A DNA stretch of 64,000 nucleotides. Source: Heptranchias perlo. Lineage: Eukaryota. Positions 24,111 through 28,006 of this stretch are shown piece after piece. The stretch covers positions 48,050,001 to 48,114,000 of the forward strand of contig NC_090335.1 in assembly GCF_035084215.1 (NCBI RefSeq), read 5' to 3'. The notes under the pieces were generated by a model. The model saw nothing but the letters and a program-made list of their open reading frames with translations. It ran no database searches and was not told the DNA's origin. Numbering within the stretch: the first letter of the stretch is position 1; each line of letters opens with the position of its first letter. Both the position numbers and the translations under genes were made by a program.

Positions 24111-25058
24111 ATGGCAGGAGATCCCAGCGCCGTGTCATGTTCCTCTTGTGGGATGTGGGAATTCAGGGCTCCTTCCTGTATCCCTGATTCCTTCACCTGC
24201 GGGAAGTGTGTCCAGCTGCAGCTATTGTTTGACCGCTTGACGGCTCTGGAGCTGCGGATGGACTCACTTTGGAGCATCCGCGATGCTGAGAAAGTCGTGG
24301 ATAGCACGTTCAGTGAGTTGGTCACACCGCAGATAAAAATTACTGAGGGAGATAGTGAATGGGTGACCAACAGACAGAGGAAGAGTAGGAAGGCAGTGCA
24401 GGGGTCCCCTGCGGTCATCTCCCTCCAAAACAGGTATACCGTTTTGGATACTGTTGGCGGAGATGGCTCACCAGGGGAAGGTGGCAGTGGCCAGGTTCAT
24501 GGCACCGTGGCTGGCTCTGCTGCACAGGAGGGCAGGAAAAAGAGTGGCAGAGCTATAGTGATAGGGGACTCGATTGTAAGGGGAATAGACAGGCGTTTCT
24601 GCGGACGCAACCGAGACTCCAGGATGGTATGTTGCCTCCCTGGTGCAAGGGTCAAGGATGTCTCGGAGCGGCTGCAGCACATTCTGGAGGGGGAGGGTGA
24701 ACAGCCAGTTGTCGTGGTGCATATAGGTACCAACGATATAGGTAAAAAACAGGATGAGGTCCTACAAGCTGAATTTAGGGAGTTAGGAGTTAAACTAAAG
24801 AGTAGGACCTCAAAGGTAGTAATCTCAGGATTGCTACCAGTGCCACGGGTTAGTCAGAGTAGGAATGACAGGATAGCTAAGATGAATACGTGGCTTGAGA
24901 GATGGTGCAAGCTGGAGGGATTCAAATTCCTGGGCCATTCGAACCGGTTCTGGGGGAGGTGGGACCAGTACAAATTGGACGGTCTGCATCTGGGCAGGAC
25001 TGGAACCAATGTCCTAGGGGGAGTGTTTGCCAGTGCTGTTGGGGAGGGTTTAAACTAA
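24111..25058 (+). CDS. CR1 ORF1p: zinc finger/leucine zipper + SGNH esterase, 315 aa
   Basis: CSSC...CGKC, heptad leucines, VIGDS, PGA, GTND and DGLH blocks. Confidence 0.95.
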   Translation: MAGDPSAVSCSSCGMWEFRAPSCIPDSFTCGKCVQLQLLFDRLTALELRMDSLWSIRDAEKVVDSTFSELVTPQIKITEGDSEWVTNRQRKSRKAVQGSPAVISLQNRYTVLDTVGGDGSPGEGGSGQVHGTVAGSAAQEGRKKSGRAIVIGDSIVRGIDRRFCGRNRDSRMVCCLPGARVKDVSERLQHILEGEGEQPVVVVHIGTNDIGKKQDEVLQAEFRELGVKLKSRTSKVVISGLLPVPRVSQSRNDRIAKMNTWLERWCKLEGFKFLGHSNRFWGRWDQYKLDGLHLGRTGTNVLGGVFASAVGEGLN

Positions 25059-28006
25059 TGTGGCAGGGGGATGGGAACCGATGCAGGAAGTCAGTGGGAA
25101 ATAAAGTGGTGACAGAAACAAAAGGCAGTAAGGGAGAGTGTACAGAACATGACCGGACAGATGGTCTGAGAAAGCAGGGCAAAGACCAAGGGAAGTCTAG
25201 ATTAAACTGCATTTATTTCAATGCAAGAAGTCTGATGGGCAAGGCAGATGAACTCAGGGCATGGATGGGTACATGGGACTGGGATGTTATAGCTATTACT
25301 GAAACATGGCTAAGGGAGGGGCAGGACTGGCAGCTCAATGTTCCAGGGTACAGATGCTATAGGAAAGATAGAGCAGGAGGTAAGAGAGGAGGGGGAGTTG
25401 CGTTCTTGATTAGGGAGAACATCACGGCAGTAGTGAGAGGGGATATATCCGAGGGTTCGCCCACTGAGTCCATATGGGTAGAACTGAAAAATAAGAAGGG
25501 AGAGATCACTTTGATAGGATTGTACTACAGACCCCCAAATAGTCAACGGGAAATTGAGGAGCAAATATGTAAGGAGATTACAGACAGCTGCAAGAAAAAT
25601 AGGGTGGTAATAGTAGGGGACTTTAACTTTCCCAACATTGACTGGGACAGCCATAGCATTAGGGGCTTGGATGGAGAGAAATTTGTTGAGTGTATTCAGG
25701 AGGAATTTCTCATTCAGTATGTGGCTGGCCCGACTAGAGAGGGGGCAAAACTTGACCTCCTCTTGGGAAATAAGGAAGGGCAGGTGACAGAAGTGTTAGT
25801 GAGGGATCACTTTGGGACCAGTGATCATAATTCCATTAGTTTTAAGATAGCTATGGAGAAGGATAGGTCTGGCCCAAAAGTTAAAATTCTAAATTGGGGA
25901 AAGGCCAATTTTGATGGTATTAGACAGGAACTTTCAGAAGTTGATTGGGAGAGTCTGTTGGCAGGCAAAGGGACGTCTGGTAAGTGGGAGGCTTTCAAAA
26001 GTGTGTTAACCAGGGTTCAGGGTAAGCACATTCCTTATAAAGTGAAGGGCAAGGCTGGTAGAAGTAGGGAACCTTGGATGACTCGGGAGATTGAGGCACT
26101 AGTCAAAAATAAGAAGGAGGCATATGACATGCATAGGCAGCTGGGATCAAGTGGATCCCTTGAAGAGTATAGAGATTGCCGGAGTAGAGTTAAGAGAGAA
26201 ATCAGGAGGGCAAAAAGGGGATATGAGATTGCTTTGGCAGATCAGGCAAAGGTGAATCCAAAGAGCTTCTACAAATACATAAAGGGCAAAAGGGTAACTA
26301 GGGAGAGAGTAGGGCCTCTTAAGGATCAACAAGGTCATCTATGTGCGGAACCACAAGAAATGGGTGAGATCCTGAATGAATATTTCACATCGGTATTTAC
26401 GGTTGAGAAAGGCATGGATGTTAGGGAACTTGGGGAAATAAATAGTGATGTCTTGAGGAGTGTACATATTACAGAGAGGGAGGTGCTGGAAGTCTTAACG
26501 CGCATCAAGGTAGATAAATCTCCGGGACCTGATGAAATGTATCCCAGGACGTTATGGGAGGTTAGGGAGGAAATTGCGGGTCCCCTAGCAGAGATATTTG
26601 AATCATCCACCGCTACAGGTGAGGTGCCTGAAGATTGGAGGGTAGCAAATGTTGTGCCTTTGTTTAAGAAGGGCGGCAGGGAAAAGCCTGGGAACTATAG
26701 ACCAGTGAGCCTGACATCTGTAGTGGGTAAGTTTTTAGAGGGTATTCTGAGGGACAGAATCTACAGGCATTTGGAGAGGCAGGGACTAATTAGGAACAGT
26801 CAGCATGGTTTTGTGAGAGGAAAATCATGTCTCACGAATTTGATTGAGTTTTTTGAAGGGGTAACCAAGAAGATAGATGAGGGCTGTGCAGTAGACGTGG
26901 TCTACATGGACTTCAGCAAAGCATTTGACAAGGTACCGCATGGTAGGTTGTTACATAAGGTTAAATCTCATGGGATCCAAGGTGAGGTAGCCAATTGGAT
27001 ACAAAATTGGCTTGACGACAGAAGACAGAGGGTGGTTGTCGAGGGTTGTTTTTCAAACTGGATGCCTGTGTCCAGCGGTGTGCCTCAGGGATCGGTGCTG
27101 GGTCCGCTGTTATTTGTTATTTATATTAATGATTTGGATGAGAATTTAGGAGGCATGGTTAGTAAGTTTGCAGATGACACCAAGATTGGTGGCATTGTGG
27201 ACAGTGAAGAAGGTTATCTAGGATTGCAACTGGATCTTGATAAATTGGGCCAGTGGGCCGATGAATGGCAGATGGAGTTTAATTTAGATAAATGTGAGGT
27301 GATGCATTTTGGTAGATCGAATCGGGCCAGGACCTACTCCGTTAATGGTAGGGCGTTGGGGAGAGTTATAGAACAAAGAGATCTAGGAGTACAGATTCAT
27401 AGCTCCTTGAAAGTGGAGTCACAGGTGGATAGGGTGGTGAAGAAGGCATTCAGCATGCTTGGTTTCATTGGTCAGAACATTGAATGCAGGAGTTGGGATG
27501 TCTTGTTGAAGTTGTACAGGGCATTGGTGAGGCCACACTTGGAGTACTGTGTACAGTTCTGGTCACCCTATTATAGAAAGGATATTATTAAACTAGAAAG
27601 AGTGCAGAAAAGATTTACTAGGATGCTACCGGGACTTGATGGTTTGACTTACAGGGAGAGGTTAGACAGACTGGGACTTTATTCCCTGGAGAGTAGGAGA
27701 TTAAGGGGTGATCTTATAGAAGTCTATAAAATAATGAGGGGCATAGATAAGGTCGATAGTCAAAATCTTTTCCCAAAGGTAGGGGAGTCTATAACGAGGG
27801 GGCACAGATTTAAGGTGAGAGGGGAGAGATACAAAAGGATCCAGAGGGGCAATTTTTTCACTCAAAGGGTGGTGAGTGTCTGGAACGAGCTGCCAGAGGC
27901 AGTAGTAGAGGCGGGTACAATTTTGTCTTTTAAAAAGCATTTGGACAGTTACATGGGGAAGATGGGTATCGAGGGATATGGGCCAAGTGCAGGCAATTGG
28001 GACTAG
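25058..28006 (+). CDS. CR1 ORF2p: AP endonuclease + reverse transcriptase (start uncertain)
   Basis: [46 protein letters not shown]; open to TAG 28004-28006; -1 frame relative to ORF1. Confidence 0.95.
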   Translation: MWQGDGNRCRKSVGNKVVTETKGSKGECTEHDRTDGLRKQGKDQGKSRLNCIYFNARSLMGKADELRAWMGTWDWDVIAITETWLREGQDWQLNVPGYRCYRKDRAGGKRGGGVAFLIRENITAVVRGDISEGSPTESIWVELKNKKGEITLIGLYYRPPNSQREIEEQICKEITDSCKKNRVVIVGDFNFPNIDWDSHSIRGLDGEKFVECIQEEFLIQYVAGPTREGAKLDLLLGNKEGQVTEVLVRDHFGTSDHNSISFKIAMEKDRSGPKVKILNWGKANFDGIRQELSEVDWESLLAGKGTSGKWEAFKSVLTRVQGKHIPYKVKGKAGRSREPWMTREIEALVKNKKEAYDMHRQLGSSGSLEEYRDCRSRVKREIRRAKRGYEIALADQAKVNPKSFYKYIKGKRVTRERVGPLKDQQGHLCAEPQEMGEILNEYFTSVFTVEKGMDVRELGEINSDVLRSVHITEREVLEVLTRIKVDKSPGPDEMYPRTLWEVREEIAGPLAEIFESSTATGEVPEDWRVANVVPLFKKGGREKPGNYRPVSLTSVVGKFLEGILRDRIYRHLERQGLIRNSQHGFVRGKSCLTNLIEFFEGVTKKIDEGCAVDVVYMDFSKAFDKVPHGRLLHKVKSHGIQGEVANWIQNWLDDRRQRVVVEGCFSNWMPVSSGVPQGSVLGPLLFVIYINDLDENLGGMVSKFADDTKIGGIVDSEEGYLGLQLDLDKLGQWADEWQMEFNLDKCEVMHFGRSNRARTYSVNGRALGRVIEQRDLGVQIHSSLKVESQVDRVVKKAFSMLGFIGQNIECRSWDVLLKLYRALVRPHLEYCVQFWSPYYRKDIIKLERVQKRFTRMLPGLDGLTYRERLDRLGLYSLESRRLRGDLIEVYKIMRGIDKVDSQNLFPKVGESITRGHRFKVRGERYKRIQRGNFFTQRVVSVWNELPEAVVEAGTILSFKKHLDSYMGKMGIEGYGPSAGNWD

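Follow-up and report, generated by a model that had tools for sequence, protein, structure and literature searches.

The window analysed is a 64-kb stretch (64,000 nucleotides) of Heptranchias perlo contig NC_090335.1, and it contains three CR1 copies, here termed A, B and C. Copy A is full length and lies on the forward strand. Its 5' UTR (23249..24110) includes a 68-bp tandem array (about 23249-23802) and is followed by ORF1 (24111..25058, 315 aa), in which N-terminal Cys pairs were recognised by alignment and a C-terminal SGNH/GDSL esterase domain matched Pfam Lipase_GDSL_2 (2.7e-11) and the solved structure 4C1B (6.8e-39). ORF2 is in the -1 frame (25049..28006, 985 codons counted from the junction heptamer) and encodes a variable linker, then an APE endonuclease with its NARS motif at codon 58, and a reverse transcriptase. 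The 3' UTR (28007..28100) closes with a short tandem repeat (28069-28100), in keeping with a 3' end in short tandem repeats without poly(A), which we take to be a CR1 trait. Copy A is classified from its sequence as a vertebrate esterase-type CR1 LINE, with the likeness to CR1 consensuses judged by eye. Zinc finger-like Cys pairs with an esterase, APE with reverse transcriptase, a 5' array and a 3' repeat are all shared with the vertebrate esterase-ORF1 CR1s described previously (CR1 subgroup 7, ORF1 type IVB, PMC4120745; Canonical-CR1, PMC13343379).

Copy A ORF1 ends in Gly-Leu-Asn-stop (GGT TTA AAC TAA), and the slippery heptamer U_UUA_AAC (TTTAAAC, 25049..25055) stands there in the ORF1 register. 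A second in-register heptamer, G_GGU_UUA (25046..25052), overlaps this site and is restricted to Gly-Leu-Asn subfamilies; of 89 distinct ORF1 ends, 28 have glycine ahead of Leu-Asn. The TAA stop shares bases with an ORF2-frame ATG (TAATG, 25056..25060), an arrangement that is not conserved in the family. The ORF2 frame is open over 24899-28006; its codons across the junction are TTT AAA CTA ATG TGG. Conceptual translation predicts an ORF1-ORF2 fusion of 1298 aa with the trans-frame sequence ...GEGLN-LMWQG. Coordinates, register and frames were recomputed and were all as given in the preliminary description, which had also put forward a fusion of this length with this trans-frame peptide. Downstream lies a conserved G-rich motif (25066..25076), whose run of five G begins 10 nt past the heptamer. 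Within the motif, at 25071, an ORF1-frame ATG with a strong context follows the ORF1 stop by 12 nt and opens a 13-codon dead-end ORF.

Copy B is a 5'-truncated CR1 of another subfamily on the forward strand (53706..57056, 3' end approximate). Its junction has the heptamer TTTAAAC at 54079-54085, followed by TAA CT, and five G at 54096-54100. ORF2 is intact over 970 codons; there is no AUG at the junction and the first Met is codon 146 (54514), behind the NARS (codon 48) and ETW (codon 75) endonuclease motifs, exactly as first reported. One base is missing in the G run upstream of the heptamer, and the ORF1 frame ends VGGV-stop. Copy C is a decayed CR1 on the reverse strand (1..4475), interrupted by an insertion at about 718-1103; a tandem array (1922-4475) precedes its ORF1, and the linker has an additional frame break. 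Its junction (minus strand, 421-450) reads TTTAAC, one A of the heptamer having been lost. The earlier statement that two diverged copies keep the heptamer context therefore stands for copy B but not for copy C, which was rejected as heptamer evidence and supports the flanking G-rich motif only. The caveat that both copies carry a 1-nt indel at the junction proved correct, and these single-base losses count against frameshifting. As a bare 7-mer TTTAAAC is unremarkable, with 16 occurrences on both strands of the window; it is the homologous position of the heptamer, not its mere occurrence, that exceeds chance. Overall identity between copies A and B is 66%, and of 590 identical degenerate residues 266 are encoded by the same codon in both; over 25046-25076, 29 of 31 bases are identical. 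Contigs from four runs pile up over 25040-25081, their ends loose to left and right.

Relatives of ORF1 were collected by a profile search, with a profile that left out the last 14 columns and that had been built in part from 28 of the 69 proteins counted. Among these 69 relatives, scoring at least 200 bits, 60 end in Leu-Asn-stop and three run on as Phe-Lys-Leu, which is what the heptamer encodes in the -1 frame; the remaining six comprise four that stop early, one that diverges and one that ends Ile-Asn. P0141, P0084 and P0106, which are cut short at Leu-Asn pairs elsewhere in the protein, were left out of the Leu-Asn tally. Carriers of Leu-Asn-stop come, by name, from sharks, rays, a chimaera, frogs, lizards, turtles and birds. 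Immediately ahead of Leu-Asn 13 different residues occur, and a third-position U is possible in 88 of the 89 distinct ends; Met, Trp, Gln, Lys or Glu occupy the next two positions in 42/89 and 31/89 ends. The bias towards U-codable residues before Leu-Asn gave a Fisher p of 5e-7, or 0.006 for 41 ends (50% representatives), values made optimistic by kinship. At the DNA level, all 12 junctions that can be read completely in the consensuses of Table 2 of PMC13343379 carry TTTAAAC, and two more rows end inside the heptamer with their visible letters in agreement. Seven of about 46 parts of that table were covered in full, with consensus sequences shown to 400 nt; at that length the junction is out of view in most of the full-length rows, among them every duck and hummingbird row examined. 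A larger set of 20 rows includes rows picked by heptamer search and gives no denominator for heptamer frequency. The heptamer at the ORF1 end is common to CR1 relatives from sharks to crocodilians, and in the ScyCan_CR1-1a consensus, as far as displayed in that table, the junction matches copy A nearly letter for letter by eye. Scans of DNA with the ORF1 alignment gave 24 metagenome loci, 0 viral-contig loci and 7 prokaryote-genome loci with no vertebrate CR1 among them, and a search with the ORF2 N-terminus gave two proteins, with the junction in neither.

Leu-Asn is invariant across 29 aligned ORF1s (a set picked for reaching the C-terminus), as would be seen if protein constraint alone acted on the terminal Leu-Asn of ORF1p and an N-terminal Phe-Lys-Leu...Gly-x-Gly of ORF2p, the letters being fixed by the overlap. 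Protein constraint as the sole cause is exceedingly improbable. Leu-Asn is absent from 4C1B, an L2-type esterase, and lies outside the shared esterase fold because the 4C1B alignment stops at profile position 306 of 310. Distant relatives end ORF1 with other heptamer-codable dipeptides, e.g. in Gln-Gly-Asn and Ser-Lys-Asn. Phe-Lys-Leu is upstream of every start codon and is therefore selectable only if ribosomes arrive from ORF1.

The junction is conserved above the flanking coding sequence, and for its G-rich part we only infer a tie to translation. Both points would suit an island conserved as an internal promoter, a splice acceptor for an ORF2-only RNA, or a packaging or ORF1p-binding site, to which the slippery likeness is incidental. 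We consider such a signal very unlikely, with the heptamer always in the sole register that allows slippage. A splice acceptor was rejected as the conserved unit because the stop codon after the heptamer differs between relatives (TAA, TAG or TGA) and leaves no constant AG; from copy B, even an RNA with ORF2 alone would have no Met ahead of the endonuclease. The GTTTAAAC palindrome was likewise rejected as the conserved unit, being absent from Ala-Leu-Asn families.

Start codons at the junction bear on termination-reinitiation, in which ribosomes that have finished ORF1 would begin anew in the -1 frame, at UAAUG or a non-AUG codon, releasing free ORF2p. Copy A has the overlap and copy B does not; among the rows of PMC13343379 it is present in 2 of 13 in the fully covered parts and in 3 of the 20 overall, with GUG in place of AUG in two further rows, and it occurs in none of five read-through proteins. 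The comparison of heptamer, register and AUG across subfamilies, which the preliminary description had put forward, thus gave, in the portion of the table covered, a constant heptamer, a mostly absent AUG, and Leu-Asn-stop across jawed vertebrates. Human L1 ORF2 reportedly tolerates AUG loss, so reinitiation could also operate where the AUG is missing. Published work assigns SART1 (PMC5972666) and L1 (PMC2881922) to this route, which there yields separate proteins; copy A shares the UAAUG overlap of SART1-type coupling, and a TGGGA resembling calicivirus motif 1 lies at 24960-24964. That TGGGA, however, codes for Trp-Asp of the shark esterase, a dipeptide not retained in frog-type rows. SART1 requires a downstream structure, whereas folding of the CR1 junction found none, and the out-of-frame AUG of the conserved G-rich motif would draw off reinitiating ribosomes. 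The fixed TTA and AAC codons and the preceding U are also left unexplained, and AUG is missing from most subfamilies and from intact copy B. Reinitiation is thus an unlikely general route, but it may act alongside in the subfamily of copy A because copy A carries a textbook UAAUG.

ORF2 is probably made by programmed -1 frameshifting at U_UUA_AAC as an ORF1-ORF2 fusion (probability about 0.72), because the heptamer is shared, ORF2 lies one base back and the start codon is mostly absent. Conservation of the junction sequence thus supports the candidate frameshift site first proposed. As in canonical -1 signals, X_XXY_YYZ stands in the zero frame, the -1 ORF is open (copies A and B) and the site is conserved; a 3' stem-loop a few bases downstream was not found. 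U_UUA_AAC is one of the most shift-prone heptamers on mammalian ribosomes according to the part of PMC5009743 covered. The majority of ribosomes would halt at the adjacent stop and release the 315-aa esterase ORF1p. In a minority the Leu and Asn tRNAs would move from UUA AAC to UUU AAA, and these ribosomes would read on from CUA, first through the linker and then through the endonuclease and reverse transcriptase, to give a product of 1298 aa in copy A. The slippage rate would set how much ORF1p is made per ORF2p, in the manner of Gag and Gag-Pol. The weakest step is the pause, which would probably come from the stop codon in the decoding site plus the G-rich motif lying 10 nt further on; the motif would bind a protein or fold into a weak two-tier quadruplex and would not work as a hairpin.

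The 10-nt spacer between heptamer and G run is present in copies A and B and in 7 of the 20 consensus rows in view, and four of five read-through proteins fit it; at least four G in a run within 15 nt were found in 16 of these 20 rows, many of them visibly gapped. A downstream hairpin was rejected as stimulator, since seven segments from three copies folded no better than shuffles (z -0.80 to +1.38, pseudoknots left out). No long-range pairing partner for the G-rich motif is shared by copies A and B, and an Rfam search gave nothing above threshold and one sub-threshold chance match. Quadruplex prediction at the motif was weak and two-tier only.

Coronavirus signals (IBV and others), in the part of PMC5009743 covered, have the same heptamer in the zero-frame register ahead of a -1 polymerase ORF; unlike them, the CR1 junction showed no 3' hairpin on folding, has a stop directly after the site and is hosted by a LINE. 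The arterivirus nsp2 signal (PMC4937337) may be alike in having no obvious structure and a short conserved motif past a 10-nt spacer, but the CR1 motif is G-rich and not C-rich, and any likeness is one of position alone. Dictyostelium TRE5-A and TRE3-A (L1 clade) are APE-type non-LTR elements whose ORF2 is said to need a -1 frameshift (PMC5911963); they differ from CR1 in clade and ORF1, and the part of that paper covered does not specify a slippery site. A literature search that did not extend to the original CR1 papers found no prior description of a CR1 frameshift; the word "frameshift" is absent from the main text of PMC4120745 and PMC13343379, and the parts of both covered do not address the route of ORF2 translation.

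More tentatively, and with doubt, a whole esterase-ORF1 LINE branch predating jawed vertebrates may express its polymerase as a Gag-Pol-like -1 fusion with swapped heptamers and a trigger made of a stop plus an unstructured G-run. The heptamers would be U_UUA_AAC in vertebrates and G_GGA_AAC and A_AAA_AAC types in the Gln-Gly-Asn and Ser-Lys-Asn relatives. The vertebrate CR1 G-run at a fixed 10-nt distance would be a natural G-run or quadruplex stimulator.

Translation of LINE ORF2 has been worked out for few elements and is mostly credited to reinitiation. In most vertebrates the dominant retrotransposons belong to the CR1 group, as stated in PMC13343379, and the candidate junction signal is about 30 nt long. 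A 2016 review (PMC5009743), in the part covered, describes natural use of quadruplexes in frameshifting as not known, and a G-run stimulator, if true, would be notable in that light. If ORF2p is a fusion, ORF2 annotations that begin at the first Met would be wrong, and copy B annotated in this way would lose both N-terminal endonuclease motifs. CR1 mobility assays would need the native junction, and the esterase would bring the polymerase into the particle in a Gag-like manner.

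CR1 LINEs were abundant in the window, the host DNA of which is vertebrate. Copy A, a full-length CR1 (about 23249-28100, + strand), comprised a 5' tandem array, ORF1 and ORF2. Domain search identified an SGNH esterase in ORF1 (24111-25058, +), the closest named relatives of which were from a sawshark (77% and 74%, protein search). ORF2, with APE and RT domains, was assigned by frame and domain analysis to the -1 frame, open over 24899-28006 (+). ORF1 terminated in GGT TTA AAC TAA, placing U_UUA_AAC (25049-25055) in slippery register. This register, the -1 frame and a predicted fusion of 1298 aa had been given in the preliminary description, and all were reproduced on recomputation; the junction feature is real. 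The computed product of tandem slippage would read ...GEGLN-LMWQG across the junction.

Two further copies had been cited in support, and one of them kept the heptamer. Copy B, a 5'-truncated CR1 of another subfamily (53706-57056, +), carried it at 54079-54085 (+) on inspection, with an upstream G run 1 base short and an unbroken ORF2 of 970 codons (first Met at codon 146, after NARS at 48 and ETW at 75). Copy C, a decayed CR1 (1-4475, - strand; junction at 421-450), had lost one A of the heptamer and was broken elsewhere too. An insertion (718-1103) divided its ORF1, upstream of which lay a tandem array of 2.5 kb (1922-4475) with repeat units of 7 and 14 bases, open in all three plus-strand frames and probably its expanded 5' UTR.

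TTTAAAC occurred 16 times over both strands of the window, and therefore only homologous conservation was counted as evidence. Copies A and B were 66% identical, and their codons agreed for 266 of the 590 degenerate residues that they share; at the junction 29 of 31 bases matched, both mismatches being bases of the AUG. Contigs of four runs from four organisms (80% likeness) peaked at 25040-25081 in each run, their loose ends clustering at 25025-25042 and 25079-25080, and none of the 40 listed of 99 contig differences fell within 25035-25092. Published CR1 consensuses (PMC13343379, table seen in part) were examined over 400 nt each, junctions being counted by eye. Within seven whole table parts, the heptamer was present in 12/12 fully visible CR1 junctions, and two additional rows ending inside it agreed with TTTAAAC. 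Searching the table for that very motif, heptamer plus stop at the ORF1 end, returned alligator, crocodile, bowfin, bullfrog, elephant shark, stingray, coelacanth, bearded dragon, sawfish, catshark, dogfish and one row labelled Crack. TAATG was found in 2/13 rows of the seven parts and 3/20 of all rows examined; GTG occupied the AUG position in 2 rows. Counterexamples could lie beyond the 400 nt or in other papers' supplements.

Protein searches retrieved 297 ORF1-like proteins, which were compared with a profile made without the last 14 alignment columns. The profile end was reached by 214. Leu-Asn closed 111 of these, one being a truncation; 5 continued into Phe-Lys-Leu, the heptamer read in the -1 frame, and 98 had other endings. 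The residue following Phe-Lys-Leu was Asn, Asp, Asp, Ile and Gly, Met in 0/5. At 200 bits or more, 69 relatives (28 retrieved proteins also belonged to the profile alignment) comprised 60 Leu-Asn-stop, 3 Phe-Lys-Leu, 4 early ends, 1 divergent and 1 Ile-Asn. Named carriers of Leu-Asn were sharks, rays, chimaera, frogs, lizards, turtles, swallow and turaco, the last four names coming from the 5 of 10 looked-up proteins that had one; the ending was absent from the teleost esterase ORF1s examined. The alignment of the L2-type esterase structure 4C1B ran as far as position 306 of the 310-position profile, two residues short of the protein's own end, so the shared fold does not need the dipeptide. 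The heptamer predicts a U-ending codon before Leu, and hence none of Met, Trp, Gln, Lys or Glu there. Such residues occupied that position in 1/89 distinct ends, versus 42/89 and 31/89 at the two positions next upstream, and 6 to 14 of 89 per position further upstream (p 5e-7; with 50% representatives, 1/41, p 0.006; relatedness makes both p values optimistic).

Of 113 representative ORF1 proteins at the profile end, 74 more distant ones were kept after removing 32 vertebrate-type endings and 7 very short or long tails. Heptamer-codable C-terminal tripeptides were present in 30/74, versus 3.5% per site within the same domains; these were 17 Leu-Asn, 10 Gly-Asn, 2 Lys-Asn and 1 Lys-Lys, many near-duplicate at the C-terminus. 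We regard them as a lead from protein sequence. Preceding residues that would complete other slippery heptamers were seen in the Gly-Asn or Lys-Asn proteins P0201, P0207, P0210, P0212, P0214, P0216, P0217, P0226, P0245, P0249, P0282 and P0283. In the distant metagenome loci L001 (about 1830), L003 (about 1590), L018 (about 4400), L005, L012 and L013, ORF2 shared the frame of ORF1 and a single TAG or TGA stood between them, a different junction design that suggests readthrough or reinitiation.

Within the protein set, P0007, P0146 and P0298 were shark-type CR1 proteins deposited as sequences of the bacteria Pseudomonas, Proteus and Carnobacterium, the probable cause being host contamination of those assemblies. 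CR1 ORF1 sequence labelled as ray host-gene isoforms (P0030, P0130, P0061, P0077; ribosomal protein S24, hydroxyacid oxidase 2, TMEM204, ABHD14A-like) reflects either exonisation or annotation artefact. Host TRIM-type exons (RING, B-box, coiled coil) lay at 6146-7765 (+), and the CR1 copies are probably in or near that gene. An immunoglobulin C1-set domain was encoded in an open frame at 59553-60113 (-), probably an immune-gene exon. Another LINE family, more distantly related and sharing about 32-40% identity with ORF2, was represented by fragments at 34781-35658, 51147-52431 and 60653-63092 (-).

For seven downstream segments from three copies, predicted folding was no more stable than that of shuffled sequence (z -0.80 to +1.38); an upstream segment gave z -1.68. 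Rfam search returned no match above threshold. For the G motif, a G-rich stretch (25066-25076 in copy A), a weak two-tier quadruplex was predicted in 3/3 copies, and no long-range partner was common to copies A and B. At least 4 consecutive G occurred within 15 nt downstream in 16/20 of the consensus rows seen; the spacer from the heptamer was exactly 10 nt in copies A and B and in 7/20 rows (alligator, crocodile, sawfish, catshark, elephant shark), others often being visibly gapped. The protein-stimulated arterivirus signal, in the portion of PMC4937337 seen, has an equal spacer, a likeness of position only.

In the portions of the literature seen, ORF2 is made by reinitiation in SART1 and L1 (PMC5972666, PMC2881922), -1 frameshifting is stated for Dictyostelium TRE5-A and TRE3-A (PMC5911963), and +1 frameshift, reinitiation or readthrough is suggested for Paramecium elements; the literature covered also included PMC3708506, PMC5405496, PMC4255032 and PMC4120745. 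CR1 had 0 occurrences in the first 300,000 characters of PMC5009743. No paper on a CR1 frameshift was found, in a search with thin coverage of subscription literature, the original CR1 descriptions being among the papers outside it.

Anatomy, register, conservation and AUG scarcity at the CR1 junction are direct observations. Conservation supports the frameshift proposed in the preliminary description: ribosomes would slip by -1 at the heptamer to yield an ORF1-ORF2 fusion, and the ORF1 stop codon and G run may contribute. The main weaknesses of this reading are that its evidence is at sequence rather than product level, that folding revealed no structured stimulator, and that translation of L1 ORF2 is reportedly AUG-independent. 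Termination-reinitiation could instead yield the ORF2 product; the AUG inside the G motif, in the ORF1 frame and opening dead-end ORFs of 13 and 8 codons, fits scanning reinitiation poorly, and we consider this route unlikely. Programmed -1 frameshifting at the CR1 ORF1/ORF2 junction is given a probability of about 0.7. In TAATG subfamilies, such as that of copy A, frameshifting and reinitiation may operate side by side.
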